Shown here one piece after another: positions 6,116 through 22,957 of a DNA stretch of 64,000 bases. The stretch spans positions 330,713-394,712 of the forward strand of contig CAVUAA010000002.1 in assembly GCA_963739345.1 (NCBI GenBank). Direction: 5' to 3'. Each line of letters starts with the position of its first letter. The stretch's first letter is position 1. A program made the position numbers and the translations under genes. This DNA is from an uncultured Verrucomicrobiae bacterium. Its GTDB lineage: Bacteria; Chlamydiota; Chlamydiia; Chlamydiales; JAFEGQ01. Below the pieces are notes generated by a model, which was not told the DNA's origin, made no database searches, and worked only from the letters and a program-made list of their open reading frames with translations.

Positions 6116-7877
6116 GGGGTGTGTACCGAGAGGCTTGGAGGTTGAAGAGGGTGGCGTAGGGGCCCTGGTTTGTGAGAAGGGTGCGGTGGGGGCCCTGCTC
6201 GAGGATGTGGCCCTCTTTGAGGAGGATGATCTTGTCAGCCATACCGACTGCGCCGAGGCGGTGGGTGACGAAGAGGGTAGTGATGTAGGTCGATACGCGT
6301 GTGAAGGATTCGAAGACTTCGTGTTCGCTGCGGGGGTCGAGGGAGGCGGAGGGTTCGTCAAGGACGAGAAGTTGGGGCTGTTTGCGAAGGAAGGCTCTTG
6401 CCATGGCAAGTTTTTGCCATTGGCCTCCGGAGAGGTCAGTGCCGCCAAATTGGGGGCCTAGGGGGGAGTCTAGTCTTTCGTCGGCGAGCGAGAGGGCGCT
6501 GCTGTTCTCTAGAGCTTGTCGGAGTTCGTTGAGGGTGGCGCGGTTGCCGGCATCGCCAAGCTCAATGTTTTCGCGTAGGGTAAAGTGGTAGCGGCCATAG
6601 TCTTGGAAAAGGGCGCTGCAATGCTTGCGCCATTGCTCGAGATCGAGATCTTTTAGGTCGACGCCGTCGATGGTGATGCGGCCGCCAGTGGGATCGTAGA
6701 AACGGAGCAGAAGCTTGACGAGGGTGGTTTTGCCGGCTCCATTTTCACCGACTAAGGCTACTTTTTCTCCAGGAGCTATGCTGAAGGAGATATTTTGTAG
6801 GGCGAGTCGTCCATCAGGGTAGGCGAAGCTGACGGATTCGAAACGGATGCCTTTGGCTATGCGGGTAAAGGGGTGGGGGGTGGGAGAGCGAGGAAGTTGT
6901 AGGTCGCGACGTGTGAGGAATGCGCGGAAGCGGACAAAGTAGTCGAGGGCTGGATTGAGCATGGCGAGGTCTTGAAGAAGGCCTGCAAGCTGGGCTTGTA
7001 GGAGGGTAAAGCCTTGCAATGCCACAATGAGAGCTGCAGGGGGAAGGGCGTTGGTACGAGCGCGCAGGATGAGCCACAGCAGGACGCCGATGTAGCCGCA
7101 AACGGTGAGAAGGGAGGCGCTCATTGCCGGCAAGATTTCGCGCCAGCAGCGGGCGCTGAAGGCTTGTAGAAATTGAGAAACTGTCTGTTTGTACTGTTGC
7201 ACGAGGAACGGCCCGAAGCCAAAGATCCGCATTTCAGTGACTGAGGGGGTCTTGACACAGAGTGAGGAGAGCCATCGAAGTCGCTGCGCTTCCTTGCCGC
7301 TAAACAGGCTCTGATTCCATCGCAGCTTCTCAAACCACATGATTGCCAGAGAGTGAGGGAGCGAGGCGATGAGTACGACGAGTCCAAGCGACCAGCTGAA
7401 GGTAGAGAGGAGGAAGGTAATGCAGCCGATGGAGATGGCTCCTTGCAGGAGATCTGTCAGGACGTAGACGACGTTCATCGGTCGTCTTGACGATTCGACT
7501 TCTAGGAAGTCGAGTTCAGAGCGTAGGTCTTTGGACTCAAATGGGGAGAGTCCATCGATGCTGTTGCTCTTTTCCATGAGCTTGGTGTTGAAGTGGGCAA
7601 GAGCTTTCTCATTGAGCCGGATGCGAAGGATGGATAGGAGGGGATAGCTCGCTTTTTCACTAAGGAAAACGGTTCCCCAGAGAATGAGAAGGGTGATCGG
7701 CCACGCGGTTGTGGGGCTGATGACCCAATTCACGGTTTGTTGCAGTGCGACGAGCGACACAAGGGGAATTGCGCCAAGCGTAGCAGTGAGAAGCACAAGC
7801 GTTAGGAGCTCCCACCATCCGGCAGAGGCTAGCTGTTTCAAGCCCCAAGTTAAGGCGCGTAGCGAACGGGTTCGCAT
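6105..7877 (-). CDS. ABC exporter, fused permease and ATPase (MsbA/ABCB-like)
   Basis: N-terminal 6-TM region. Walker A GENGAGKTT, signature LSGGQWQKLAMARAF, Walker B LLVLDEPSASLD. Confidence 0.85.
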   Translation of the reverse strand: MRTRSLRALTWGLKQLASAGWWELLTLVLLTATLGAIPLVSLVALQQTVNWVISPTTAWPITLLILWGTVFLSEKASYPLLSILRIRLNEKALAHFNTKLMEKSNSIDGLSPFESKDLRSELDFLEVESSRRPMNVVYVLTDLLQGAISIGCITFLLSTFSWSLGLVVLIASLPHSLAIMWFEKLRWNQSLFSGKEAQRLRWLSSLCVKTPSVTEMRIFGFGPFLVQQYKQTVSQFLQAFSARCWREILPAMSASLLTVCGYIGVLLWLILRARTNALPPAALIVALQGFTLLQAQLAGLLQDLAMLNPALDYFVRFRAFLTRRDLQLPRSPTPHPFTRIAKGIRFESVSFAYPDGRLALQNISFSIAPGEKVALVGENGAGKTTLVKLLLRFYDPTGGRITIDGVDLKDLDLEQWRKHCSALFQDYGRYHFTLRENIELGDAGNRATLNELRQALENSSALSLADERLDSPLGPQFGGTDLSGGQWQKLAMARAFLRKQPQLLVLDEPSASLDPRSEHEVFESFTRVSTYITTLFVTHRLGAVGMADKIILLKEGHILEQGPHRTLLTNQGPYATLFNLQASRYTPHVS

Positions 7878-8201
7878 CAGCTCGCCTCCGGAATCGTAAG
7901 GTGTCGTTTAATGATTTCTATGTTGAAGTCTCTTCGCTCTGGGTTGCGATTGGCGCCTTGTCTCGTCGTTGCATAGCAAAATCTTTGGCCGCTTGGAAGT
8001 CGCAGCTTAAGTCTGGTTGGTGCAGGCGGCGTTGCAGGTAGAGGTAGGACGATGTTTTGCGCATTACACACCTAACTTTAAGCGCAGAAACATTAGTCCA
8101 CCAGTCCTGATCATTAAGGAGATTGTTCCAGGCGGTACTTATTCGACTGTAGATGTAGCAGACTGCTGGTCGACCAGGGAAACCGGCCAGGCGTGTGGCG
8201 A

Positions 8202-9155
8202 TTAATCGATGGAAAGGCTGGAGAGGTAGGCCTGGAGCTGGCCATAGGTAGCGCGATCGGTATCTGTGATGTCGTAGTCGACTGATTGAAGCTTGTGGAG
8301 CTCGGCGAGGGTTGTGTCTAGGTCGATAAGGGCTCCAAGTCGTTTGAAGTGAGACCAAACGATATAGCCTTCGCCGAAGGCAGCGTTATGCTTGAGCTCG
8401 GTATAAGCTTCTGCTGTGGGGACCAATTCAGCCGGTGAGCAATCTAGGGGTTCATCTAGGGGTGGCTGGGTGAGGGCGCCTCCGGAGGCAATGAGTTCTA
8501 TAGTTGCGATGAGGGTAAGGTTAGGCTCAATGAACGATTGTGAGCCGTAGGCCCATTTTGGATGAATGTGCATCTGGCGGATCTCCCCTGGGCGCATGCC
8601 GATTATACCTCTGCGCATCCCAATGATGAGGTCTGTGAGGAAGTGTTCGCGGGGGATGACATCGATGAAGGTATCGGCTAGGCACTCGCCGGTCTCGGAA
8701 GCTGGAAGGCGCCGGATACGATAACGCAATTTTACTGATTCGGTGTTCTCGTGGACGGCGGAGCCACGTCCGGGAGTCAAAGTTTTAACGTATATTTCGT
8801 GCGGTATGATGGAATCAAAGGTGTCGTCATGTGAGACTTCTACGAAGTGTTGTTCGCTAGCCAGCAGATTTGCCACGGCCTGATGGGATAGTCGGCCCTC
8901 GTGATATTTCATCAAGGTAGCGTAGACGTCAGCGTTAGTTAGGCAAGACGAGCCTTTTTCAGCGGCTTTCATTCCACAAACGAGCTCGTTAATGTAGGCT
9001 TGGTCTTTCTCCAACGCACCGTAGAATATTGCGCTGGCGACACTGCGGGCTTTGGACTCTTGGCTTAGGCTTTCTAGGTGAGAGGCTTGGGAAGGGGCGG
9101 CTGCGGCTAGCGGTAGAGAGCAGAGGGCAAGTGTGGTTAGGATTTTCACGAACAC
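8202..9155 (-). CDS. secreted FKBP-type peptidyl-prolyl isomerase (Mip-like)
   Basis: Signal peptide MFVKILTTLALCSLPLAAAAP. FKBP-like core VKLRYRI...LIIGMRRGIIGMRPGEIRQMHIHPKWAYG. Confidence 0.6.
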   Translation of the reverse strand: MFVKILTTLALCSLPLAAAAPSQASHLESLSQESKARSVASAIFYGALEKDQAYINELVCGMKAAEKGSSCLTNADVYATLMKYHEGRLSHQAVANLLASEQHFVEVSHDDTFDSIIPHEIYVKTLTPGRGSAVHENTESVKLRYRIRRLPASETGECLADTFIDVIPREHFLTDLIIGMRRGIIGMRPGEIRQMHIHPKWAYGSQSFIEPNLTLIATIELIASGGALTQPPLDEPLDCSPAELVPTAEAYTELKHNAAFGEGYIVWSHFKRLGALIDLDTTLAELHKLQSVDYDITDTDRATYGQLQAYLSSLSID

Positions 9156-10577: not shown

Positions 10578-11747
10578 CAATGACCCAGATTGCTACCCTG
10601 ACTCGGCTTAAGGGCTAGCGAAGTGGTTCAGATACGACCGGAACGCCGACGGCAAGGGTACTCCCTTGCCGAGAAGTTCCGGGAAGTAGATGGGCCGCTG
10701 CAGCAGCCCTTAAGCCGACGAATTTTCTTAAGTGACTCGAGAGAGACTGTAGGCCGAGGATAGCACTCATGATCCGGATGGAAAATCCGAAGTGCAGTGG
10801 AGGCTCGAATGCTACGAGGTAGCAGTCCCGTGATGCAGCTAAACGCTGTCTCCACGATTTGTCTTCGACTACTAATCGCCTTCTCTGCCTCTTCCGTTCG
10901 CTTTCTTGTCGAATTCGGATGCTTTCTTCTGGCGAGAAGCTCGATGGAAGAATCCTCTGCGAAGAACGTCTTCGAGGTCATAGCAATTGTAGGCTCCGTC
11001 AGCATAGAGCTTCGATTGTGGTGGGAGATCAAGCTCCATCTTCCATAAGACAGCAACGTCATTTCTGCATGCTGGCTCCATCGCCACCTCAACTGGTTCT
11101 CCCGCACATGTCACAACCATATGAACCTTAATGCCGCAGAAATATTTCTGTTTCGACGGAGCGTAGCCGATGTATTCCTTGCCGAGGAAGAACTTTCGTC
11201 GATCAATCCGCTGCTTCTTGCAGCACTCCACTGGAAAACTGTCCACAGCGTACTCAGACGAGGAGTTAGTCTTCCTGAATATCAGAGCTAGAAAGCGAAA
11301 TACTGCCGTCCATATTGGCCATGGAATTTTGTGCAGACGACGATTGAGCCGGCTCTCACTCAAAAGATTGGGGAAGTAGCGAGATTGGCGGCAAAACCAG
11401 CAGGTTTTGCGATGGTTCCCACCAAATAGTTGCCCGGACATGATCGAGAACGTGATGATTTCAGCTGTGCTCATTCGAGCTTGCCGGTCATCTTCAAATC
11501 CCATAGCTTTAATGACTTCATCGCAAACGACGTAGGTGATAATGATTTGCATGTCCATGTGCCTTCTCCTTTTTGGGGCATTCAAAAAGAAAAAATATAC
11601 ACGGTTTACCACAGGACTTCAGTGTTGCACTCATCTGCCACGTATAAGCTCTTGGCAAGGGAGTACCCTTGCCGGCGAGCTGCTACGCGACATCTAAGCA
11701 CAACACTGAAGTCCTGTGGCAAATCAGGGTAGCAATCTGGGTCAATG
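10578..11747 (-). mobile_element. IS982-family insertion sequence (about 1.17 kb)
   Basis: 24-bp terminal inverted repeats ca[a/t]tgacccagattgctaccctga at 10578-10601 and 11724-11747 (1 mismatch). They enclose an IS982-like DDE transposase. Each end also carries a long sub-terminal hairpin. Confidence 0.75.
10628..11558 (-). CDS. IS982-family transposase, split between two overlapping frames (frameshift near 10960-10975)
   Basis: Frame A runs from ATG 11558 (SD AGGAGA) to ...LYADGAYNCYDLEDVL. Frame B continues FAEDSSIELLARRKHPNS...RRQIVETAFSCITGLLPRSIRASTAL. The join lies at gacgttcttcgcagag. Confidence 0.6.
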
Positions 11748-11830: not shown

Positions 11831-12424
11831 TTGGAAGAATATCGGGTTGTTGGCGTTTTTGGAGGGAAGGCGGTTTGCGTTGGAGAGGGGGTTGAGGAGG
11901 TTGAGGTTCGGAAGATGGATGTGGTGGTGGGCGCGGTGGAGGAGGTGTTCGTCAAGGGGATGAGGCTGGGGGTGGGGGCGGAGAAGGAATTGGAGGCGGC
12001 GAGGGATTTCCAGCTCGGGGGCGAGGTGGAGGCGGTTGTTGATCATCAGGTGGTAGCTAGGGACGAGATGGGGGTGCGGTTAAGTGTTTTTTCTGTGCGG
12101 AAAGAGGTGGTTGGGGGCTGTTTGGATTGTGAGCGGTTGAGCTGTGTGCCGGCGGCATTGGCCGAGGTGGGAAAGGCGTTGGGAGGCGAGGGGCGGTATG
12201 GGGTGGTGTGGAAAGATTTTGCGGTGGTTGGGAGAGGGGGTTTGGTGTTGTGGGCAGGGAGAGGGCGGAGGGCTGTGAGGGGGTTGGGAGAAAAGGGGCT
12301 GAAGAGGGTGTTTGGCTGGAGGAGGAGCGCTGGGGCGGGGTGGAATTGGGTGAGTACGGGGTGGCGGTTGGGTTTGCATTGGGGGCGGGGGTTTGGACTT
12401 TCGGCAGGGGGAGTTTGCGTATAG
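11831..12424 (+). CDS. hypothetical soluble protein, first ORF of a coupled operon (possible PilM/GspL-cytoplasmic-domain analogue)
   Basis: G-rich coding strand. TTG start at 11831 (alternative ATG at 11915). The C-terminal third is compositionally odd (G/R/W-rich), so the frame or extent is uncertain. Confidence 0.3.
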   Translation: MEEYRVVGVFGGKAVCVGEGVEEVEVRKMDVVVGAVEEVFVKGMRLGVGAEKELEAARDFQLGGEVEAVVDHQVVARDEMGVRLSVFSVRKEVVGGCLDCERLSCVPAALAEVGKALGGEGRYGVVWKDFAVVGRGGLVLWAGRGRRAVRGLGEKGLKRVFGWRRSAGAGWNWVSTGWRLGLHWGRGFGLSAGGVCV

Positions 12425-12827
12425 GGAGCGGTGGAAGAGGGAGAAGGGGAGGCTGATGGGTTTTGTGGGGGCGTGTGTGGCGGTCTGTTTGGGGGTGGTG
12501 GTCTTGGGGAGTGTGTTGGTGGGGAAGGAGAGGGAGATGATGGGGGTTGCGAAGGGGGAATTGGGGAAGGTGGATGGCTGGGAGTCGTTTGAGCTGTGGC
12601 CAAGGGTTGCAGGGGTGAGCGATGTGATGGCGTGGGTGGGAAGTAGGGTGAAACGGGTGGAGAGCTTTCGGTATCTCTTGGGATCGGATGTGAGAGTGGA
12701 GCTGGTTTTTGAGGCGGAGAGCCCGACGAAGGCGAGAGAGTTTCACGATGAACTGTTGAATTGGGAGGTGACGAGCTGGGGGATGGTGGGTGAAAATATC
12801 GGGTGGTGTTTTCGGTATGATTTCTAA
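12393..12827 (+). CDS. hypothetical bitopic membrane protein (PilN-like architecture)
   Basis: A basic stretch YRERWKREKGRL is followed by TM MGFVGACVAVCLGVVVLGSVLV and a domain of about 100 aa. It overlaps both the upstream and downstream ORFs. Confidence 0.45.
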   Translation: MDFRQGEFAYRERWKREKGRLMGFVGACVAVCLGVVVLGSVLVGKEREMMGVAKGELGKVDGWESFELWPRVAGVSDVMAWVGSRVKRVESFRYLLGSDVRVELVFEAESPTKAREFHDELLNWEVTSWGMVGENIGWCFRYDF

Positions 12828-13389
12828 GCAGCGGATGTTGGTTTATTTGATGGTGGGCTGTTTTGCGGTGGTGGGCTGCGTGGGGTGGTCTGTGGGCGAG
12901 AGGGTGAAGGGGGCGAAGAGGGAGCGGATGGTGGTGGAGCGGATGTTGGGGGCGGCGAGGATAAAGATGGCGCGCCAAGAGGTAAACCGGGCGGTGCGTG
13001 ATGCTTTTGCGGGAGCAGATCACCGGTATGTGGATCGGGAGCTGGAGACGGTGGAGTTGCTTAAGGGAGAGAGGGAGGGGTTGAGGCGCTTGCTGGAGCA
13101 GGAGCCTGGTTTGCCGAGCAAGGAGGTGTTGGGGCGGCTGGAGAAGTTGGAGGGAAACCGGGTGCGGTTTGCTGAGGGGAAGGTGCGGCAAGAGGGGTGT
13201 GTGAGCGAGGTGGAGGAGAAGCTGGCGAAGGGGGTGGAGGTGGACATTGCGGATGTGATGGGGCTGCTGGAGAGGATTGAGGGGGTTGGCGAGGGGAGGC
13301 CGCAGATGGTGGTGACGGAATTCGGGCTTAGGAGGAAGGGGGAGGTGTTTGAAATGGATATGCGGTTTGTGAAGAGGGAATTCGAATGA
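12817..13389 (+). CDS. hypothetical bitopic membrane protein with a coiled coil (PilO/GspM-like architecture)
   Basis: ATG 12817 overlaps the previous stop (12825-12827). TM MLVYLMVGCFAVVGCVGW is followed by a coiled-coil-like segment and a small C-terminal domain. The stop overlaps the next start (ATGA at 13386). Confidence 0.5.
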   Translation: MISKQRMLVYLMVGCFAVVGCVGWSVGERVKGAKRERMVVERMLGAARIKMARQEVNRAVRDAFAGADHRYVDRELETVELLKGEREGLRRLLEQEPGLPSKEVLGRLEKLEGNRVRFAEGKVRQEGCVSEVEEKLAKGVEVDIADVMGLLERIEGVGEGRPQMVVTEFGLRRKGEVFEMDMRFVKREFE

Positions 13390-14558
13390 AGTATCTTTTG
13401 TTGGCTCTGGTGTTAGTGGGATGTGCGCGGGGGGTGAGTGAGCGCGATCTTGTGAAGATCAACATCATCGATCGGAATGGGATGAATGAGACGATTCAGG
13501 CGAAAGACCGCTTGGCGAGGTATCAGGGGGTCGATTTCCTGCGGGCGCAGCCCTATCAGAAGGTGCTGCGAGTGTGCGGACCAAGGGTGGATGGTGCGGT
13601 CCCCTCGTTTGTGACAAGCTACCATGAGAATGGACAGGTGCGGCAGTACCTGGAGGTGGTAGATGGGCGGGCGAGTGGTTGGTATCGAGAGTGGCATCCG
13701 AATGGGGCGCTCAAGTTAGAGGCGTGGGTCGTTGGAGGGGTGGCCGACATCGATGAGCGGGCGCAGGAATCGTATGTGTTTGAGGGGGTAAGTAGAGCGT
13801 GGGATGGAAAGGAAACGCTTGTGGGAGAGATCCCCTATGAAGCGGGTGTGTTGGAAGGGGTGTGTCGTTACTTTAAAGGGGGTGAGCTGGTCCGGTGCGA
13901 GCGGTATGAGAAGGGAGTGTTGGAGGGGGAAGTGATGAGTTTTTGGCCGGGGGGGATGCCGCAGTCAGAGGAGGTCTATGCGAGGGGCTTGCTGGCTGAG
14001 GGGAGATATTTTGATCGGGCGGGTCTCTGTCTTGGCGAGGTGCGCAAGGGACGGGGTGTTCGTGTGGTGTTTGGGGAGGGGCATGCACTTTGGGATGTGG
14101 TGAGGGGAAGTCCGAGGGGGCGGGTGCGGGAGTATGGTGTGCGGGGCGAACTTCATCGTCTCTACCACGTGAAAGGGGGGGTGAAGGAGGGGGAGGAGGT
14201 GGAGTACTGGGAGGAGCCATTTGGACTGGATCCGGTGCAGAAATTGTCGCTTAACTGGCGTGGGGGGGAGATTCAGGGGGTGGTGCGGACCTGGTATGAG
14301 GATGGGCAGCTGGAGAGTCAGCGGGAGATGAGCCACAATAGGCGGAACGGAATGTCGACGGCATGGTATCAAGATGGAAGTTTGATGCTTGTCGAGGAGT
14401 ACCGGGAAGACCGGCTGGTGAAGGGCGAGTATTATGAGAGGGGCGCTTCGCGTCCCGCTTCAGGTGTGAGAGAGGGGGAAGGGATTGCCACTCTCTTTGA
14501 TCCGCAAGGAACCTATTTGGCGCGAGTCAACTATGTGGAGGGAAGTCCAATTGAGTAA
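13386..14558 (+). CDS. MORN-repeat (YwqK-type) lipoprotein
   Basis: Lipobox MKYLLLALVLVGC. Repeated YxENGQ/WYxDG motifs (YHENGQVRQY, WYREWHPNGALK, TWYEDGQLES, AWYQDGSLML). Confidence 0.7.
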   Translation: MKYLLLALVLVGCARGVSERDLVKINIIDRNGMNETIQAKDRLARYQGVDFLRAQPYQKVLRVCGPRVDGAVPSFVTSYHENGQVRQYLEVVDGRASGWYREWHPNGALKLEAWVVGGVADIDERAQESYVFEGVSRAWDGKETLVGEIPYEAGVLEGVCRYFKGGELVRCERYEKGVLEGEVMSFWPGGMPQSEEVYARGLLAEGRYFDRAGLCLGEVRKGRGVRVVFGEGHALWDVVRGSPRGRVREYGVRGELHRLYHVKGGVKEGEEVEYWEEPFGLDPVQKLSLNWRGGEIQGVVRTWYEDGQLESQREMSHNRRNGMSTAWYQDGSLMLVEEYREDRLVKGEYYERGASRPASGVREGEGIATLFDPQGTYLARVNYVEGSPIE

Positions 14559-15057
14559 GGAAAAGATTCGGCAGGAGTTTCGGGAGATTCGGAAGGGGTT
14601 ATCGGAGGAGCGGCGGCGGGGTGCGGCGGAGGCTCTGAGGGGAGAGGTGCTCAGGCTGGTTCCGGAGGGGCTGGTGATGTCGTTTTGGAGTTTGGGGGAT
14701 GAGATTGGGACCGAGTTGTTGAATGAGGCGTTGGGAGAGCGATTGGTGCTCCCGAGGGTTCATGATGGAGGGCTGGAGATGCGGCGCGCCGGTGACCTGG
14801 TGGAGGGACCCTATGGTTTGATGGAACCGTCGGAAGGCTGTGAGCGGGTGGACGAGGTGGGGTGTGTTTTGGTGCCAGGGTTAGCTTTTGATGAGTGGGG
14901 GCACCGGGTGGGCTATGGAATGGGATATTATGATCGCTGTCTAGCTGGGGTGGCTGAGCGGGTGGTGGTGTACGGGGTGGCGTTTAGGGAGCAGCTGGTG
15001 GCCCTTGTGCCGGCGGAGGCGCACGATGTTCCTGTTCACAAAGTTCTAAGTTTCTAA
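14533..15057 (+). CDS. 5-formyltetrahydrofolate cyclo-ligase
   Basis: Motif VPGLAFDEWGHRVGYGMGYYDR. Start taken at ATG 14533; the ORF is open from 14485. Confidence 0.75.
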   Translation: MWREVQLSKEKIRQEFREIRKGLSEERRRGAAEALRGEVLRLVPEGLVMSFWSLGDEIGTELLNEALGERLVLPRVHDGGLEMRRAGDLVEGPYGLMEPSEGCERVDEVGCVLVPGLAFDEWGHRVGYGMGYYDRCLAGVAERVVVYGVAFREQLVALVPAEAHDVPVHKVLSF

Positions 15058-15168: not shown

Positions 15169-15227
15169 GGTCTAGGTTCGGGTTACCGGGATTGCAGATT
15201 GATAGTAGGTGGGTTAATATTATCGAT

Positions 15228-15725
15228 ATGCAAGACCCTTACCTTTTGTGGATCACAGGTTTGTCAGGGGCGGGTAAAAGCTCGCTGGCCCGGCGCGTCC
15301 GAGACCGTGCTCGGTCGCGTGGAGAGCGTCCCATTCTGCTCGATGGCGATGCGATCCGAGAGGTGTGTGGTGGCGATCTCGGGTATGGGGATGGCGATCG
15401 GCTCAAAAATGCCTATAGGATCGCCCGATTCTCTCATTTAATTGTCGATCAGGGATTCTCGGTCATCTGCGCGACTGTTTCTCTTTATGACGAGATTCAT
15501 GCTTTCAATAGGGAGTCCTTGGCTAACTACCGCGAAGTGTATGTGAGCTGTCCTCTTGCGGTGTTGCGGGGGCGAGATCAGAAGGGGCTCTATTCTGGAG
15601 AAGCCGATTTGGTGGGTATTACGCAGGCGTGCGATTTTCCGAAGAGACCCCACCTGGTGGTGGAGAACGCTTCGGAGGAGCAGCTAGAGGAAAATGTGGA
15701 GCTCATCGATGCCCTTATCTGCTGA
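15228..15725 (+). CDS. APS-kinase-fold P-loop kinase (Cj1415-like; candidate cytidine diphosphoramidate 3'-kinase)
   Basis: GLSGAGKSS Walker A, LLDGD, and RDQKGLY resembling the CysC motif RDPKGLY. About 165 aa from ATG 15228. Confidence 0.7.
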   Translation: MQDPYLLWITGLSGAGKSSLARRVRDRARSRGERPILLDGDAIREVCGGDLGYGDGDRLKNAYRIARFSHLIVDQGFSVICATVSLYDEIHAFNRESLANYREVYVSCPLAVLRGRDQKGLYSGEADLVGITQACDFPKRPHLVVENASEEQLEENVELIDALIC

Positions 15726-18057
15726 AAGCTTAACTTTTGGGACAAAGGCCGATACATTGGCCCGCCTCGAAGGGTGCGTGAAGAAATCGAGAGTATTACC
15801 CCAGGTGGCATTTTCCGTCGCTTCCTACCGGAAGGAACAGGGGAAGCTTCTTTCTAGGGTTCAGGAGAAGTTTGCGAAGGGCAAGGTGATCGTCCGTTCG
15901 TCGGCGATAGGAGAGGATTCGGCAACCTCTTCAATGGCTGGGCAGTTCACCTCTGTGGCGGGCCTTGGGACCGATTCGGAGGAGCTGGCGGCGGCGATTG
16001 ACCGGGTGATTCGCTCCTATGGGGAGGGGGAGGAGCACCAGGTACTGGTTCAGCCGATGATCGGCCAGATCAAGCGGTGCGGGGTCGTCATGACGGCCGA
16101 CATGGAGACGCTCTCTCCCTACTATTTCATCGACGCCGATCTTTCGGGGCGCCACGATGTGGTGACAGGGGGGAGCGGGGGGGAGAGGGTCTCCTACGTC
16201 CACTACAAGAGATCAGAGCTGGAGCCGTCGTTGAGATGGGTGAGAGAGCTGATCGAGGCGTGCCGCGAATGCGAGGTCCTATTTGAGAATGAGGCGCTCG
16301 ACATTGAGTTTGCATTTGACTCGGAGGATCGACTCTACCTCCTGCAGGTCCGCCCAATTGTCCGTCGGCTGGTTCCGTTGATCTCCTGTGAAAGACTCGA
16401 TGATGCCCTTTCTAAGGTGGCAAGTAAGGTCGAGAAGATTTGTGGGCCTCACCCGGAGCTGCTGGGCGAATCGGGGATGCTAGGCGTCATGCCCGACTGG
16501 AATCCGGCTGAGATCATCGGTCTAAAGCCTCGCCCTTTGGCCCTGACGCTCTACCAAGAGCTGGTCACGAATCAGGTGTGGGCTTACCAGCGGGACAACT
16601 ATGGTTATCGCTCCTTGCGCTCACATCCGTTGCTGATCTCCCTGTTGGGTGTCCCCTATATCGATGTGCGGGTCTCTTTCAACTCGTTCGTCCCCGCCTC
16701 CCTCGGTGACCCGATCGCGGAAAAGTTGGTCGATATCTATCTCAAGCGACTAAGGGCCTATCCGGAGAACCACGACAAGGTGGAGTTTGAGATCGTCAGC
16801 AGCTGTTACACGCTCGATCTTCCTGAACGGATGGAGGCCTTACGAGAAGAGGGTTTAAGCGCGGCGGAGACGGACGAGATTTCCCGCTCTCTTTTGGCTT
16901 TGACGCGGAGAATCCTCTGTCCGAGGAGTGGTCTCTGTCGAAGCGATCTCGAGAAGGTGGAGGGGCTAGAGGAGCTCCACAACCGGGTGATGACCTCTTC
17001 CCTTCATCCGATCGAAAAGATCTATTGGCTTGTCGAGCACTGCAAACGGCATGGGACGCTCCCATTTGCAGGGGTGGCTCGCGCTGCCTTTGTCGCCACG
17101 CAGTTTCTCGACTCCCTGGTCACCTCGGATTTGCTTAATCCAACCGAGAGGTCTCAGTTTCTCCGTAGTCTCTCAACAGTCTCTTCCGAGCTGACCCGTG
17201 ATCTTGCCTGGATCAAGAGCGAGGGGGGGAAGGAGCGCTTTTTATTGCGCTACGGTCACCTTCGGCCTGGCACCTATGACCTCCTCTCGTATCGGTATGA
17301 CGAGGCGTTTGAGAGCTATTTTCCAGAAGGGGTAACAGCCGGTGAGGAGAGCGCGCCGTTTGTGTTGCCCGATGAGAGAATGGAGGCGATTTCGATCGAG
17401 CTCCGCCGCCACCAACTGGGGCTCGATGCGAGCGCCCTATTTGCCTTCATGCAGATGGCTATCGTGGGAAGGGAACGGGCGAAATTTCTATTCACCAGGA
17501 CACTCTCTGACGCGATGCAGCTGATCCTTCAGCTGGGGGAGCGGGTGGGGCTTAGGCGCGAGGAGATGGCCTATCTCAACATTGGATCGGTCCTCTCCCT
17601 CTATCACACTCTCGACGCCCGTGATCTCAAGGAGCATTTCCTCCACGAAATCGAGCGCAACAAAGAGATGTATGCCTACACGCAGGCGGTTCACTTGCCG
17701 CTGCTGATCGGCAAGCCACAAGAGGTCTACACATTTGCTAGCTTCTCAGAAGAGCCCACCTATGTGACGCTCAAGCGGATCAGCGCCGAACCGGTGGTGG
17801 TCGATGAGGAGGCAAGTCTCGCTGGAAAAATCGCGTGCATCCGCTCGGCCGATCCTGGTTATGACTACCTCTTCGCTCAAGGGATTTCGGGTCTCGTGAC
17901 GGCCTATGGGGGGGCCAACTCTCACATGGCGATCCGATGCGCAGAGTTGGGAATACCCGCTGTGATTGGAGCGGGGGAGGTCAACTTCACCAAGTGGAGT
18001 GGAGCGGGGCTTCTGGAGATCGATGCAGCAAACAAAACGTGTGCAGTGATCCGATGA
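15694..18057 (+). CDS. PEP-utilising-type enzyme with a C-terminal phosphohistidine domain (Cj1418-like; candidate L-glutamine kinase)
   Basis: 787 codons (alternative ATG at 15709). The swivel-domain motif GGANSHMAIRCAELGIPAVIGAG lies about 40 aa from the C-terminus, leaving no room for a PEP/pyruvate TIM-barrel. The start overlaps the upstream stop. Confidence 0.7.
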   Translation: MWSSSMPLSAESLTFGTKADTLARLEGCVKKSRVLPQVAFSVASYRKEQGKLLSRVQEKFAKGKVIVRSSAIGEDSATSSMAGQFTSVAGLGTDSEELAAAIDRVIRSYGEGEEHQVLVQPMIGQIKRCGVVMTADMETLSPYYFIDADLSGRHDVVTGGSGGERVSYVHYKRSELEPSLRWVRELIEACRECEVLFENEALDIEFAFDSEDRLYLLQVRPIVRRLVPLISCERLDDALSKVASKVEKICGPHPELLGESGMLGVMPDWNPAEIIGLKPRPLALTLYQELVTNQVWAYQRDNYGYRSLRSHPLLISLLGVPYIDVRVSFNSFVPASLGDPIAEKLVDIYLKRLRAYPENHDKVEFEIVSSCYTLDLPERMEALREEGLSAAETDEISRSLLALTRRILCPRSGLCRSDLEKVEGLEELHNRVMTSSLHPIEKIYWLVEHCKRHGTLPFAGVARAAFVATQFLDSLVTSDLLNPTERSQFLRSLSTVSSELTRDLAWIKSEGGKERFLLRYGHLRPGTYDLLSYRYDEAFESYFPEGVTAGEESAPFVLPDERMEAISIELRRHQLGLDASALFAFMQMAIVGRERAKFLFTRTLSDAMQLILQLGERVGLRREEMAYLNIGSVLSLYHTLDARDLKEHFLHEIERNKEMYAYTQAVHLPLLIGKPQEVYTFASFSEEPTYVTLKRISAEPVVVDEEASLAGKIACIRSADPGYDYLFAQGISGLVTAYGGANSHMAIRCAELGIPAVIGAGEVNFTKWSGAGLLEIDAANKTCAVIR

Positions 18058-18635
18058 AACAGATTCTTGTGACAGGCCGCTTGACGTGTGATGATCAGAC
18101 CGGGGAGGTGCGCGACACTCTCGATTCCAAGTGGACACCGTTTCTGCAGCAGGCGGGGCTTTTGCCCATCCTGGTGCCCCACACAGCCGATCTCGACACA
18201 TTTTTGGCTCACCTGAGCTACGATGGATTATTGTTGACGGGGGGAAATGATCTCGGGCTCTTTTCGAATTGTTCTCTTTCAAAGGCAAGAGATGCATTTG
18301 AGCTGGACCTGCTCGCTCGGGTTGAGATGCCAGTTCTTGGCGTCTGTCGTGGGATGCAGTTACTTGGCCAAAGGTATGGGGCAACTCTGCAGGAGGTCGA
18401 TGGGCATGTGGCCGCCCGTCACCTGGTTGGGGGGCGAGAGGTTAACTCTTACCATCGGTACGCGATGACATCGGCGGGCAAGCTGACGGTTTGTGGGCGC
18501 TCTCCCGATGGGGTGATTGAGCACATCGCTCATCCCACAAAACCAATTGTAGGCATCATGTGGCATCCGGAAAGAGAGAGCCCTTTTTGCCAAGAAGATC
18601 TTTCTCTATTTCGCAGACACTTTGGAGGGGCGTGA
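18054..18635 (+). CDS. class I glutamine amidotransferase / peptidase C26-like hydrolase (Cj1417-like)
   Basis: ATGA overlap with the upstream gene. Nucleophile elbow GVCRGMQLL; MWHPE His-Glu motif. Confidence 0.7.
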   Translation: MKQILVTGRLTCDDQTGEVRDTLDSKWTPFLQQAGLLPILVPHTADLDTFLAHLSYDGLLLTGGNDLGLFSNCSLSKARDAFELDLLARVEMPVLGVCRGMQLLGQRYGATLQEVDGHVAARHLVGGREVNSYHRYAMTSAGKLTVCGRSPDGVIEHIAHPTKPIVGIMWHPERESPFCQEDLSLFRRHFGGA

Positions 18636-19354
18636 TGAGAGCGATCATTTTGGCTGCTGGCACAGGGACGAGACTAGGCTCCCTCACAGCGGACCGTCCG
18701 AAGTGCATGGTAGAGTTGCAGGGGGTGCCGCTGATTGATCGGACGCTCGCGGTGCTACGAGCCGCTGGTATTGATGACGTAATTGTCATCACGGGCTACC
18801 GCGACGACTGCTTGCGAGATCATCTCAAAGGGCAGGGGGTGAGGTTTTGTCATAACGGCGACTACGCCTCCACGAACATGGTGGCAAGTCTCCTGACTGC
18901 TCGCGAGTTTTTTGACCAGGAGTCGCTCATCTCCTATGCCGATATCGTCTATACGCCCGCCGTTGTCAAGGCACTGATCCGCGAGAGAGCACCGCTTGCC
19001 CTCACCTACGACACCGACTGGCACACCTTGTGGTCGATGCGGATGGAAGATCCGCTTTTGGACGCAGAGACGTTCAAAACGGATGCGGATGGATATGTTG
19101 AGGTGGTTGGGGGAAAGCCCCGTTCTCTTAGTGACATTCAGGGGCAATACATGGGGCTCATTCGGGCGAATCCTATCGGCTTTGAGTCGCTTGTTGCGAC
19201 CTATGAGAGGTTGGGTCGTCCTCCCAAACTGCAGATGACCGAGCTCTTGCAAGCGGTGACGGCTCCGATCAAGGGTATTGCAGTGTCAGGGGGTTGGGTG
19301 GAGGTCGACACGCCCGAAGACCTGCTAGCCTACAAGGATCTTAGCTGGCTTTAG
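18635..19354 (+). CDS. nucleotidyltransferase (Cj1416-like; candidate cytidylyltransferase)
   Basis: TGATG overlap with the upstream gene. N-terminal MRAIILAAGTGTRLG signature of NTP-transferases. Confidence 0.7.
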   Translation: MRAIILAAGTGTRLGSLTADRPKCMVELQGVPLIDRTLAVLRAAGIDDVIVITGYRDDCLRDHLKGQGVRFCHNGDYASTNMVASLLTAREFFDQESLISYADIVYTPAVVKALIRERAPLALTYDTDWHTLWSMRMEDPLLDAETFKTDADGYVEVVGGKPRSLSDIQGQYMGLIRANPIGFESLVATYERLGRPPKLQMTELLQAVTAPIKGIAVSGGWVEVDTPEDLLAYKDLSWL

Positions 19355-20526
19355 AGATAGTCCGTGGACATCCACCGGTCGCGTGTTTTGCGATGCCTTC
19401 GGCGGGCTCTTGAGTTTGCGATGGCTTCTATCCGCTCCCGTTCCGTTTCGGCTGTGACAAGCGAGTAGGACTTCTCTAACGCCTGTTTGTAGAGTCGCCG
19501 TTTCCTTAGAACCTGAAAGACGCGTGTCAGCGTCTCACACACACCGTAGCTCTCCGTCTCATCCAGGAGTTGCCGAAGCAGCCGGTAGTCGACAAACCGG
19601 CCGTATGTAGCTGCCTGAATGCGGGCCATTGGACGGTCGTGGATCGTTGCACTCCATTCGGCTAAGGTCTGCCCTACTTGGTTGTTGAAGGCCCGCTCTC
19701 CCCATCTTGAGAGAGCCTTGGCAAGTCGCGCCTGGTAGGGGAGAGTTTGCGTTGCGCCAGCCTCCACGTCGTAGCCGAACTTTTGGGCAACAATGGCTGG
19801 CCAGCCGTGAAGAGCCTCCAGGTCTTCTGCGGAGTACAGCATCGCCCCTCACCCACCTGCCCTTTGCGCATGAGCTCGTGAGTTCCCAGCCATTTGACGG
19901 TGGCCGCACGGATGTTGGCGAAAGAGGAGGCCTCAATGGCCGCCTCTATCTCTCCAAGAGGCCTCTCTTCTCCCAAAAACCCTAACGCGCGCAGCACAGC
20001 TGGGAGTGGGTTGGATTTGAGCTCTTCGAAGCTGATTGTCAGTAGTTTCCCCGGTCCGAAGGCATTGGGGATGAGGCTATAGTAGTTCGCCCACTCTTCT
20101 GCCGGGGCATGATGGAGTTGGTGGCTGTAGTGAGGATCGTTTATATAAAGCGGCTCTGTGAGAAATTGGCTGAATGAGAGATGTCCGCCCAACTCTGTGG
20201 TGGCAGCGAATGAAGAACATCACGAATATCCCGGACTACCAGGATCCCCCGTCCTTTGATCTCTTCGCGGTTTGGGAGGAAGTGGGTCGAGGAGCAACGT
20301 GGGGCAGTCGCCAAAGTGGTAGACGGTTTGGTCTTGCAATCTTGGAAATCGGCCGGCAAGCAGCTTCCGCTCCCCCTCATCGATCGTCCACGAGCCATCG
20401 CCATTATTCTTCCAAAAGCATCAAAGTCTCCACGGTAGATGGGAATGCCTAACTCGAAGAGAATGTTTGCGAGGATCGACTCCCGGCGTGCGGGAAAGCG
20501 TAGATCCCGATCGACTCAGCCGCCAT
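19351..20526 (-). pseudogene. sulfotransferase-fold gene interrupted by at least three frameshifts
   Basis: MAAESIGIYAFPHAGSR (PKSGTT-like 5'-PSB position) / ILANILFELG...GILVVRDIRDVLHS / GHLSFSQF...LLTISFEELKSNPLPAVLRALGFLG...ELMRKGQVGEG / MLYSAEDLEALHGW... These lie in codon phases 0, 1, 2, 0. ATG 20526 overlaps the methyltransferase stop. Confidence 0.6.
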
Positions 20527-21250
20527 GGCGGGCGACCCAGATGCGTGTGGTGTAAGGAACCCCCACCTCTGCATCAGGGATAAGCGAGTGAATCTCATCA
20601 CAGATCGTGCTGAAAGCCTCTCCTGCCTGACGGGCCAGCGTCTCGTGTGATCGCCAGGCGGTGACAATCCGCTCTTTGGTCATGGGGACCACAAACGTAC
20701 TCTCCACCTTCTGCGAACTTTCGAAGAGGCCCGATGCTTCAATCACAGCGGTTGGGTCCTGGCGCCTCTTTCCGTAAGAGTAATCGGCAATTTTGGACTG
20801 GATCAGCTCCTCGATCGCCCTTTGCAGCGGGTCGTTTAAGTCTCGGTGATTCCACATGCAGGCAAAGTACCCACCTGGAATAAGTAACCGTGCGGCCTCC
20901 TTAAGTGCTAGGGCCTGATCCACCACGTTGAATGAGGAGCCGAAAAAGACTCCTGCAAACTGATCACTTTGAAGTCCCGTCTCCTCGCCAGAGGCCTTTT
21001 GCCACCGAACATCGAGTCCAGCACTATTTTTGATCCCAAAGTCGCGCATCGCATCGTTGGGCTCTACTGCTTTGACCCTCAGTCCGTATTGGGCGAGGGG
21101 GCCAGAGAGCTTCCCCGTGCCAGCTCCCACATCGGCCACGAGGTCCCCCCTGCTCAGGCCCATCATTTCAAAGCAGCGCGTCAGCGCCTCTTTTGAATAG
21201 TCAGCCCTTTGATCGTATGAGCTCGCACGCTCAGTATAGTCCCACTTCAT
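20516..21250 (-). CDS. class I SAM-dependent methyltransferase
   Basis: Motif I DLVADVGAGTGKLSGPLA, followed by VKAVEPNDAMRDFG. 244 codons. Confidence 0.8.
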   Translation of the reverse strand: MKWDYTERASSYDQRADYSKEALTRCFEMMGLSRGDLVADVGAGTGKLSGPLAQYGLRVKAVEPNDAMRDFGIKNSAGLDVRWQKASGEETGLQSDQFAGVFFGSSFNVVDQALALKEAARLLIPGGYFACMWNHRDLNDPLQRAIEELIQSKIADYSYGKRRQDPTAVIEASGLFESSQKVESTFVVPMTKERIVTAWRSHETLARQAGEAFSTICDEIHSLIPDAEVGVPYTTRIWVARHGG

Positions 21251-21358: not shown

Positions 21359-21901
21359 CTATGATCGCTGTTGAGTGGGGGCAGCTGGTGGGCCTTGTGC
21401 CGGCGGAGGCGCACGATGTTCCTGTTCACAAAGTTCTAAGTTTCTAATCACCTGCGCGCAAGTTTTATTAACAAAGTGTGTGTTGAGGAAGGTGCGGCCG
21501 GCTGTGAGGAGCTGGGCGTGCTGTTCGGGGGTGATGGTGTCTAGGTAGGCGGTGAGGTCGGTGTCTGTGGGGAAGCGGGAAGGGTCGATGTAGCAGGTGG
21601 GGGGGATAGCGGGGGTGCCGCGGTAGATGGGGACGGTGCCGCGGGCAATGGTCTCTAGGAGTTTATGGCAGTCGGATACTTGAGCGAAGCGGGGGGCGGC
21701 GACTCTGTTTTTATTGGCGAGGAGGCGGAAGTGGTCGCTAAGTTTGACGACGACGGCCCCTTCGGGAATGCGTTTGAGCGAGGTGCGGCGGAGGTCGTAG
21801 CCTAGGTCTCGGAGCTTTCGTTGGAGCAACTTCCAGACAGGGTGTCTGGTTTGCGGGGAGTAGTAGGCGATACGAGAGTGGGAGATGCCGAATAGCCGCA
21901 A
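21359..21901 (-). CDS. short, motif-degenerate GT10-like paralogue (possible pseudogene)
   Basis: Aligns with the C-terminal half of the neighbouring GT10 gene (TVPIYRGTPAIPPTCYIDPSRFPT vs SVPIYWGAPNITEYVPADCFIDRTQFPS), but the YENxxxxxYVTEK motif is lost. TTG start; only 180 codons. Confidence 0.45.
   Translation of the reverse strand: MRLFGISHSRIAYYSPQTRHPVWKLLQRKLRDLGYDLRRTSLKRIPEGAVVVKLSDHFRLLANKNRVAAPRFAQVSDCHKLLETIARGTVPIYRGTPAIPPTCYIDPSRFPTDTDLTAYLDTITPEQHAQLLTAGRTFLNTHFVNKTCAQVIRNLELCEQEHRAPPPAQGPPAAPTQQRS
21381..21538. repeat. right copy of the 158-bp direct repeat flanking the phosphoramidate cassette
   Basis: See 14991-15148. The right copy carries a decayed remnant of the cyclo-ligase 3' end (21359-21448, about 41 bp shorter than the intact gene). 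Confidence 0.9.
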
Positions 21902-21960: not shown

Positions 21961-22902
21961 TTAGCCAGCTTTTTTCAGATCGGCGGTCAATGTCTCTTGG
22001 ATGCCAGCTGTCATCTGATTGATAAAGCTCTCCTCTGAAAATAGCTTTGCTTTTTCGGAGGCTAGATAGCGCTTCGCGGCGGTCAGATAGGGGGCCGGGT
22101 CGAGGGTGAGGAGGTGTTCGTAGAGGGCTTGATCCGAGGGGAACTGAGTGCGGTCGATGAAGCAATCAGCCGGTACGTACTCGGTGATATTAGGTGCGCC
22201 CCAGTAGATGGGGACCGAGCCAGCGCAGAAGCAGTCGAGAATCTTTTCGGTGACGTAGCCGGGCATGCTGTGGCCATTCTCATAGGCGATAGTAAAGCGG
22301 AAGTTAGAGAGAGTAGCCAGCTTGTCGTCGACAGGGCCGCCATAGTTACGATAGCCCAGATGCTCCCAGCCAGTTCCGTAAAAGGTGAAATCAGCCTCAG
22401 GTTGATCTTCGAAAAACTCGATGAGGCGGCGGCGGTGGGTGTAGAGTTCTTGTGGATGGGAAGAGGCCTTGTTGCCCACAACCATGGTGAGAAAGCGATG
22501 CTGGGAGTTTGGAGAGCGGCTTTTGAGTGGGTTAGGGAATAGAAGCTTTTGAAATTTGGGCCCGTGGAGGTCATCGCGGAGGGTGTAGATGCGGGAAAAG
22601 CGGTCGTAACAGGCGGCGGTGTGCTGGTAGGGGATGTATGTGGGGGGCTCGGTCTGAATGAGGTGGTGGGTGGCTGGAGAGCGGTTGCGGAGGAAGTCGA
22701 GCGTCTCAGCAGTGGGCATGATGTCATTGAAGATGACGAGGGGGGCGTCTTGAGGGATTCTCCTAAGGGGAGAGCATTTGAGGCGGTAGGGCTTTACCTG
22801 GTCACGGATGGTGGCCCAAGAGGACCATTTTTGGAAAAAAGGCTCTCGGTGGGTGTGACCGGGGAGAAGGGTGATGTAGGCGGTGGGGGGCTGCTTGAAC
22901 AT
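21961..22902 (-). CDS. GT10-family alpha-1,3/4-fucosyltransferase-like glycosyltransferase
   Basis: Start at ATG 22902; the longer ORF would overlap recA. Signature FRFTIAYENGHSMPGYVTEKILDCFCAGSVPIYWGAP closely resembles the H. pylori FutA-type motif FENxxxxxYVTEKxxDxxxxxxIPIYWG. Confidence 0.75.
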   Translation of the reverse strand: MFKQPPTAYITLLPGHTHREPFFQKWSSWATIRDQVKPYRLKCSPLRRIPQDAPLVIFNDIMPTAETLDFLRNRSPATHHLIQTEPPTYIPYQHTAACYDRFSRIYTLRDDLHGPKFQKLLFPNPLKSRSPNSQHRFLTMVVGNKASSHPQELYTHRRRLIEFFEDQPEADFTFYGTGWEHLGYRNYGGPVDDKLATLSNFRFTIAYENGHSMPGYVTEKILDCFCAGSVPIYWGAPNITEYVPADCFIDRTQFPSDQALYEHLLTLDPAPYLTAAKRYLASEKAKLFSEESFINQMTAGIQETLTADLKKAG

Positions 22903-22957
22903 GTTGACTACTATAGGGTGAAAGGGGGATTCTAGCAGAAACCACAGAGGGAGGTCA

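Follow-up and report, generated by a model that had tools for sequence, protein, structure and literature searches.

A broken sulfotransferase-like gene beside phosphoramidate-donor genes points to a family of candidate phosphoramidate transferases

What would a gene of the sulfotransferase fold be doing next to a set of genes for making a phosphoramidate donor? The question is raised by a stretch of 64,000 nucleotides (hereafter the window, meaning this stretch at its full length) from contig CAVUAA010000002.1 of an uncultured Verrucomicrobiae bacterium, in which a sulfotransferase-like (ST-like) gene on the minus strand, at 19351..20526, is interrupted by frame changes and adjoins homologues of Cj1415-Cj1418 of Campylobacter jejuni. 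The C. jejuni loci for O-methyl phosphoramidate (MeOPN) contain the methyltransferases Cj1419/1420 and the transferases Cj1421/1422, the attachment and methylation of the phosphoramidate are the least understood part of MeOPN biosynthesis, and I know of no reconstitution of the MeOPN transfer step so far, even in C. jejuni. As late as August 2025 the Raushel group described the pathway of phosphoramidate decoration as still to be elucidated (PMC12409886). In this article, I will argue that the ST-like family is a candidate phosphoramidate (MeOPN-type) transferase with a dead copy in the window, a reading that draws on sequence comparison and structural models and that I consider probable on balance; that the protein has some role within the phosphoramidate pathway is the broader claim, and a likely one. 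The initial annotation of this DNA had already proposed that a fold binding 3'-phosphoadenosine 5'-phosphosulfate (PAPS) could have been recruited as a phosphoramidate transferase, an idea to which the predicted fold and the gene neighbourhoods described below both lend support. The window copy itself is non-functional, and its value lies in the family to which it points.

Fold and active site of the sulfotransferase-like family

When the frame changes are corrected, the reading path gives a product of ~393 amino acids (aa), in which a SULT-like domain of ~260 aa at the N-terminus precedes an all-helical one of ~130 aa at the C-terminus, and the whole product, helical domain included, can be aligned to relatives. 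With the corrected protein as query, a word-indexed search returned no relatives; these were collected by running HMMER in full over 1.84 billion representative proteins, which gave 134 matches at E<1e-3. The intact relatives amount to ~130 cluster representatives, measure 285-771 aa among the sequences retrieved and, at their closest, are 32-38% identical to the ST-like product. Against Pfam Sulfotransfer_1 (PF00685), a domain also carried by the intact relatives, the frame-corrected protein scored 36.5 bits (cut-off 22, E=4.6e-9), and a profile of 82 relatives matched human SULT1A1 with E=5e-23. The corrected protein gave a marginal match to PDB sequences by phmmer (E=0.23), NCBIfam holds no model for the ST-like protein, and scans of viral contigs found no loci. 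A hidden Markov model (HMM) of the intact relatives, run against the window in six frames, matched the ST-like locus alone, in three frames (E=4e-23, 2e-14 and 2e-7), which rules out a second ST-like copy elsewhere in this DNA.

Models were built by AlphaFold2 (AF2) with the 82-sequence alignment, giving a pLDDT of 90.5 and a pTM of 0.89 for the corrected window product and a pLDDT of 90.4 for an intact relative, P0002. In Foldseek searches of the PDB, all 50 matches listed for the corrected product were sulfotransferases and the 50 listed for P0002 were sulfotransferase-fold enzymes including retinol dehydratase, with a probability of 1.00 in both cases, and nearly all of the structural matches of both models had been crystallised with PAPS or with 3'-phosphoadenosine 5'-phosphate (PAP). 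The fold of the corrected product had been set beforehand as the test on which the idea should stand or fall, and PF00685, the pLDDT of 90.5 and Foldseek all agree that it is the sulfotransferase fold; this fold and the family membership that goes with it are, in my view, practically certain.

The active site tells a more complicated story. Among 82 family members (family numbering), R104 and S112 of the R-x7-S 3'-phosphate motif are present in every one, the catalytic histidine H86 in 78 and the loop glycine G19 in 80, the motif R-[KR]-G-x-x-G-E-W is likewise conserved, and the corrected window product keeps R99, S107, H82 and G224. At the position of the PKSGTTW lysine, the same members have proline (29), glycine (20), alanine (11), histidine (9) or serine (6), which accounts for 75/82, and lysine or arginine in 0/82; the window copy reads PHAGS at this loop for 5'-phosphosulfate binding (5'-PSB). 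The resemblance to a PKSGTT loop noticed in the initial annotation is therefore right as to place, since the N-terminal loop is aligned by profile to YPKSGTTW of SULT1A1, but not as to the lysine that defines the loop. In sulfotransferases the 5'-PSB loop lysine contacts the sulfate-bridging oxygen. Taken together, a 3'-phosphate site that is kept and a lysine that is gone appear compatible with a 3'-phosphorylated nucleotide donor bearing another transferable group, and the absence of the lysine would suit a donor that passes on a group other than sulfate. Judged by these alignments, the family is a divergent branch of the sulfotransferase fold, and it is not filed here as a sulfotransferase, given that one defining feature, the 5'-PSB lysine, is missing.

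Could the protein nevertheless be an ordinary PAPS-dependent glycan sulfotransferase, with PAPS supplied by the neighbour that resembles an adenosine 5'-phosphosulfate (APS) kinase and with all other gene links incidental? Its homology to cytosolic sulfotransferases in fold and Pfam family and its retained 3'-phosphate site and catalytic histidine are what such an enzyme would have, but the loop lysine or arginine is absent from the whole sample of 82, and two unrelated sulfotransferase lineages found in such gene clusters are both without the lysine, the second of them (in locus L016, see below) having alanine at this position (IIGGTSAGGTSFL; manual alignment to the canonical xxKGGTxAL motif). 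Together with the gene contexts considered in the next section, this leads me to regard an ordinary sulfotransferase as very improbable.

Set beside the cytosolic PAPS sulfotransferases (SULT1A1, mouse SULT7A1 and SULT1E1), the ST-like family shares the fold (Foldseek probability 1.00 and the profile match to SULT1A1 given above), the N-terminal strand-loop-helix, the catalytic histidine, R-x7-S and RKGxxG(D/E)W. It differs from them in having no PKSGTTW lysine, in an extra helical C-terminal domain of ~130-500 aa, which is variable and in the models looks like an acceptor-recognition module, in partner genes that serve a phosphoramidate donor rather than sulfate activation, and in a predicted donor that would be the 3'-phosphorylated cytidine diphosphate amidate (3'-phospho-CDP-amidate). 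Retinol dehydratase and other SULT-fold enzymes with non-canonical outcomes also illustrate that the fold serves chemistry beyond stable sulfation; unlike the ST-like family, for which a changed nucleotide donor is proposed, the retinol dehydratase type still uses PAPS.

Gene neighbourhoods and the proposed reaction

Thirteen genomic contexts of intact relatives were compared by tblastn with the window proteins and by precomputed Pfam calls: L001-L005 from species-representative genomes and L006-L008 from metagenomes (these two scans, yielding 5 + 3 loci, used one narrow peptide pattern), and L009-L012 and the P0139 locus from exact look-up. Homologues of Cj1415-1418 adjoin the ST-like gene in ten of them (L002, L004, L005, L006, L007, L008, L009, L010, L012 and the P0139 locus), as far as the contigs reach, and the cassette methyltransferase (36-51% identity to that of the window) is found in the same ten with the exception of L007 and L008, whose contigs end too early. 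The clearest example is L012, a 603-kb contig on which glutamine kinase, hydrolase, cytidylyltransferase, APS-kinase-like gene, methyltransferase and ST-like gene form an isolated six-gene cassette, bordered by unrelated genes and with no other transferase candidate inside; the cassette of L009 is as compact. In L004, L005, L006 and L007, which come from metagenome-assembled genomes (MAGs) of Lysobacterales/Rhodanobacteraceae and related metagenome contigs, a single strand carries the full cassette, which runs from the hydrolase through glutamine kinase, methyltransferase, cytidylyltransferase and kinase to the ST-like gene. At the P0139 locus, genes for GT10, Wzy_C, GT1 and GT2 come next after the cassette, the GT10 gene following the ST-like one, an arrangement that resembles the GT10 neighbours in the window. 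The hosts of the family are environmental lineages (Planctomycetia, Lysobacterales/Rhodanobacteraceae and others).

Gene fusions point the same way. An ST-like domain is extended at its C-terminal side by a zinc-ribbon and a class I methyltransferase, of a type unlike the core methyltransferase of the cassette, in P0005 (L010 5850-8165, 771 aa), P0033 and P0042, and the APS-kinase-like and glutamine-kinase genes are fused into one of 962 aa at L010 709-3597; by their sequences, these fusions tie the parts of the cassette into one pathway. Furthermore, the glutamine-kinase family is rare, with at least ~7400 of 5.8 billion protein clusters (8000 candidates sharing most words were scored), and chance adjacency to ST-like genes would therefore be negligible.

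These contexts also bear on sulfation. The initial annotation had asked whether intact orthologues keep company with sulfate-activation genes or with the Cj1415-1418-like set, and the contexts come down on the side of the latter: 10/13 have this set, and no ATP-sulfurylase or CysD/N-type gene occurs in any gene-called relative locus. An ordinary sulfotransferase could claim the sulfatase and FGE-sulfatase genes lying 5-8 kb downstream in L012, but it would have to account for a kinase that is always accompanied by glutamine kinase, hydrolase and cytidylyltransferase, none of which has a role in sulfation, and for cassettes and scanned window open reading frames (ORFs) in which no ATP sulfurylase or CysDN was seen.

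How, then, might the six gene products work together? The cassette would comprise a Cj1418-like glutamine kinase, a Cj1416-like cytidylyltransferase, a Cj1417-like hydrolase, a Cj1415-like 3'-kinase, a methyltransferase and, as the sixth gene, the ST-like one. The four donor enzymes would produce 3'-phospho-cytidine-5'-diphosphoramidate, a look-alike of PAPS, which the ST-like protein would hold via its conserved 3'-phosphate site (R-x7-S, R-[KR]-G-x-x-G-E-W); with the conserved histidine as general base, the phosphoramidate would be moved to an acceptor hydroxyl, which in the window is probably that of a fucosylated surface glycan, and cytidine 3',5'-bisphosphate would be released, the adjoining methyltransferase O-methylating the phosphoramidate either before or after transfer. 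On this view, P-N chemistry would have taken over the entire scheme of sulfation, from activation and 3'-phosphorylation through transfer to the recycling of the 3',5'-bisphosphate. The most specific form of the proposal, namely that a widespread, lysine-less branch of the sulfotransferase fold switched its donor from PAPS to 3'-phospho-cytidine-5'-diphosphoramidate and now provides the transferase for a six-gene cassette that is portable and occurs in Planctomycetia, Xanthomonadales-like and other environmental bacteria, has in my estimation slightly better than an even chance of being correct.

A view from the opposite direction is provided by four glutamine-kinase loci that were picked irrespective of sulfotransferases. 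In Geomonas sp. RF6 (L013, CP087999), the same five-gene core as in the window (with a methyltransferase 45% identical to the window's) is likewise accompanied by one transferase-type gene, which here is not ST-like but encodes a protein of the CDP-glycerol-glycerophosphotransferase family (Glyphos_transf, PF04464; 13707-14765) and comes after the cytidylyltransferase, in the place that the ST-like gene takes in L002, L008, the P0139 locus and the window (there on the opposite strand). Geomonas sp. RF6 is a cultured isolate and a possible genetically tractable system for comparison. A Bacteroidia MAG (L016, JAEUTO010000013) carries, at 7807-8709 and 15584-16327, the separate sulfotransferase lineage mentioned above, which adjoins an APS-kinase-like gene, together with a CysQ-like Inositol_P gene; by analogy with sulfation pathways, the latter could recycle the nucleoside 3',5'-bisphosphate by-product. 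The remaining two, from Natronincola (L014) and from a Sericytochromatia MAG with a transposase-interrupted cluster (L017), lack both ST-like and Glyphos_transf genes. An ST-like gene that is one of several alternative sixth genes is the pattern expected of an acceptor-specific transferase.

The same loci inform a second alternative, according to which the ST-like protein belongs to the pathway without being the final transferase, acting instead as a donor carrier or scaffold, as a partner that offers the donor to the methyltransferase, or as a hydrolase or editing enzyme, with the transferase encoded elsewhere. The coupling to methyltransferases by adjacency and fusion would fit donor processing equally well, the catalytic-loop lysine is absent from the family, and L014 and L017 indicate that transferases can sit outside the cluster. 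Yet the catalytic histidine is retained in all but four of the 82 members, the self-contained cassette of L012 offers no other transferase candidate, the Geomonas Glyphos_transf gene occupies the ST-like position after the cytidylyltransferase, suggesting equivalent roles, and the helical C-terminal domain has the look of a module for recognising acceptors, all of which makes this second alternative unlikely.

Four observations weigh against a phosphoramidate transferase and deserve to be stated together. A sulfotransferase-fold gene was present in only one of the four sampled glutamine-kinase loci, so that the ST-like family can be no more than one among several solutions for transfer; three of the 13 contexts are without nearby donor genes (L001 has the methyltransferase only, and L003 and the divergent L011 have no partner); the contexts sampled represent only the closest subfamily out of ~130 representatives; and the lost lysine is one that matters for leaving-group stabilisation in sulfotransferases, which the proposed catalysis would have to do without.

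The donor genes and the broken gene in the window

On the plus strand of the window, four donor genes that overlap or abut one another converge on the ST-like pseudogene. The first, at 15192..15725, encodes an APS-kinase-family kinase resembling Cj1415 (Pfam APS_kinase E=4e-30; NF004041 151.9 bits, cut-off 127) and is predicted from these matches to be the cytidine diphosphoramidate 3'-kinase; I take the NF004041 subfamily to include Cj1415. It is followed at 15694..18057 by a Cj1418-like L-glutamine kinase of the PEP-utilising family (NF004508 931 bits, cut-off 501), a type whose homologues include clusters labelled 'glutamine kinase' by JGI; at 18054..18635 by a Cj1417-like hydrolase of the glutamine-amidotransferase type (Peptidase_C26/GATase E=4e-23), predicted to be the gamma-glutamyl-CDP-amidate hydrolase, with NF045546 (GCDPHdlase) as its best NCBIfam match at 114 bits, below the cut-off of 250; and at 18635..19354 by a Cj1416-like nucleotidyltransferase, for which NTP_transf_3 (E=7e-20) is a generic match, the position is conserved in all cassettes and the predicted activity is that of a CTP:phosphoglutamine cytidylyltransferase. 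Assignment of this donor module is clear for the glutamine kinase, at subfamily level for the kinase, and at family level only for the hydrolase and the cytidylyltransferase.

The fifth partner, on the minus strand at 20516..21250, is an intact class I S-adenosylmethionine (SAM) methyltransferase of 244 aa (Methyltransf_11 E=2e-13), which bears out what the initial annotation had placed there, is orthologous to the methyltransferase of the phosphoramidate cassettes elsewhere, and is a candidate for the O-methylase of the phosphoramidate. Upstream of it lie glycosyltransferase genes of the GT10, GT11 and GT2 families, which suggest a glycan acceptor; one of these, an intact GT10-like gene at 21961..22911 (minus strand), marks the likely glycan context. 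Its fucosyltransferase-like GT10 paralogue at 21359..21901 (minus strand), an ORF of 180 aa, is degenerate, with ~128 residues deleted internally and the ENS/YVTEK-type motifs gone, and is the second decayed gene in this minus-strand string. Neither ATP-sulfurylase or CysD/N-type genes, among the ~45 window ORFs scanned, nor Glyphos_transf or a further transferase family, among the window ORFs scanned by domain search, were found, and an Rfam scan of the window gave no match.

The ST-like gene itself, recognised through Pfam, HMMER relatives, tblastn, frameshift-aware alignment and AF2/Foldseek, starts with an ATG at 20526, and the TGA of the upstream methyltransferase gene lies at 20518-20516, so the 11-nt overlap first read at this junction is real. 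Eight intact relatives aligned to it by tblastn, and a profile-to-DNA alignment that allows for frameshifts, agree in dividing it into six collinear segments with five frame changes, at ~20474 (-1), ~20418 (-1), ~20312 (+1), ~20205 (-1) and ~19840 (-1), with the site at ~20418 being a T4 run, that at ~19840 a G4 run, and the other three lying outside homopolymers. Segment A (20476..20526, MAAESIGIYAFPHAGSR) is in the ancestral frame and spans the strand and the loop that correspond to the 5'-PSB loop; segment B (20420..20473, LANILFELGIPIYRGDFD), supported by tblastn and the profile alignment, runs to the change at ~20418; segment C (20316..20417, FWKNNGDGSWTIDEGERKLLAGRFPRLQDQTVYH) has 34 codons; segment D (20207..20311, ATAPRCSSTHFLPNREEIKGRGILVVRDIRDVLHS) contains the catalytic histidine and the 3'-phosphate-binding R-x7-S motif; segment E (19842..20204, ATTELGG...RKGQVGEGR) contains the FEELK and RKGxxG motifs; and segment F (19351..19839) completes the SULT-like domain (LYSAEDLEALHGWPAIVAQKFGY) and adds the helical C-terminal domain up to the stop codon, all of them on the minus strand.

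The initial annotation had counted three frameshifts, all in the same direction. The breaks at ~20474, ~20205 and ~19840 are real and these three ORF-breaking shifts do share a direction, but the total is five rather than three and the change at ~20312 is a +1. The compensating pair at ~20418 and ~20312 (-1/+1), which scrambles ~34 codons, had been overlooked because segments B and D are in a common frame with no stop in between, so that the position of segment C was read in the wrong frame; the peptides quoted from further downstream are all there, in other frames. The C-terminal part (19351-19842, minus strand) is present in public protein collections as a stand-alone protein of 163 aa, P0001, and the source annotation apparently did not treat the locus as a single pseudogene.

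Is the gene dead, or has it merely been assembled badly? The window copy has no uninterrupted reading frame, and it is very likely a genuine and fairly recent pseudogene, as the initial annotation had allowed. Its five indels are confined to 640 bp. Among the ~45 other ORFs scanned across the 64-kb window, those matching a family are without sign of frame breaks, and the remaining window genes that were checked are full length, including RecA, MutL, an 817-aa Sel1 protein, an 858-aa cyclase, the type II secretion system (T2SS) D/E/F genes, a 717-aa P-type ATPase and the five partner genes. A deletion-over-insertion bias, here 4:1, is usual for bacterial pseudogenes. Local gene decay is also plausible because the nearby GT10 paralogue and a transposase have decayed as well; the latter is a DDE transposase (DDE_Tnp_1/1_3) at 10628-11612 (minus strand), apparently spread over two overlapping ORFs and probably a decayed or frameshifted insertion sequence element, whose remnant lies ~8 kb from the pseudogene and ~4 kb upstream of the donor operon. 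Elsewhere in the window, the region ~12000-15000 has a GC skew of 0.50-0.67 compared with ~0.1-0.3 in other parts and contains long proline-rich antisense ORFs, and ORF 12790-13389 has no Pfam match. Among the other genes, those of T2SS and those of Legionella-OMP-like, MORN and Sel1 type give the impression of a Gram-negative, possibly PVC-type, lineage.

One finding cuts against the pseudogene. The corrected product agrees with 94% of the family columns conserved at >=90% and with 89% of those conserved at >=70%, values typical of intact members, and this lack of surplus substitutions at conserved sites would fit recent inactivation and, equally, local assembly error; either the inactivation is recent or the indels are errors. 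An intact gene whose metagenome-assembled contig had acquired five local errors in assembly or consensus would further agree with a corrected reading path that has zero in-frame stops, with two of the sites falling within short homopolymers (T4 and G4) and with a source, a contig of 469 kb, that is probably a MAG, but the concentration of five indels in so short a gene, against none in the other ORFs with full-length domain matches, the three sites outside homopolymers, the decay of the adjoining genes and the deletion bias all speak for the pseudogene, and assembly error seems to me quite unlikely. The five scattered indels, the shortness of the tracts and the separation of catalytic elements onto different fragments rule out phase variation, programmed frameshifting and a split gene that still functions; instead of a single reversible frameshift in a long homopolymer, there are five separate events, and none of the sites has a run longer than T4 or G4. 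The transferase of the window would then have been lost through single-nucleotide changes, four deletions and one insertion, with its five partner genes staying intact, and the phosphoramidate modification is probably no longer made here, barring a substitute transferase encoded elsewhere in the genome.

Known systems and what the family may mean

The obvious comparison is with C. jejuni, in which Cj1415-Cj1418 produce 3'-phospho-cytidine-5'-diphosphoramidate (work of Taylor, Raushel and co-workers, cited in PMC12096443). Like the MeOPN system, the window has homologues of the four donor enzymes, two of them at family level only, clustered with a class I methyltransferase, glycosyltransferase neighbours pointing to a surface glycan, and a candidate transferase step lost by frameshift. 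The differences are that the candidate transferase of the window has a sulfotransferase fold, that no Cj1421/1422-type gene was recognised there (by domain scans, without direct sequence comparison), that the hosts of the ST-like family are environmental lineages and not Campylobacter, and that the loss came about through scattered and irreversible indels rather than homopolymer switching. C. jejuni, for its part, turns off the transferase step by phase variation of cj1421 (PMC8949473); the gene called 'CGPTase' in the same paper is not that of the MeOPN transferase.

Both the fold and the pathway are known, and it is the pairing of the two, with the donor predicted from it, that is new. Searches in the full text of 8 million open-access papers and preprints, with subscription journals outside this scope, turned up no report connecting a sulfotransferase-fold protein with the transfer of phosphoramidate, nor any text in which 'glutamine kinase' and 'sulfotransferase' occur together. 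If the proposal is true, it would supply a small, soluble candidate enzyme that is directly assayable with the 3'-phospho-CDP-amidate already available, and the analogy with PAPS would reach from the donor to the fold of the transferase, cofactor and fold having been recruited together.

For the organism itself, a dead candidate transferase alongside intact donor genes and a decayed GT10 paralogue suggests the recent loss of a surface modification. For other bacteria the family may offer a lead: the lipooligosaccharide core of Xanthomonas campestris is reported to bear a phosphoramide group (PMC8042644), and since the cassette was found in Lysobacterales/Rhodanobacteraceae MAGs, it is a possible genetic lead to that group. 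With the glutamine-kinase family amounting to at least ~7400 clusters, the proposal, if true, would mean that phosphoramidate-decorated glycans or metabolites occur far beyond Campylobacter.

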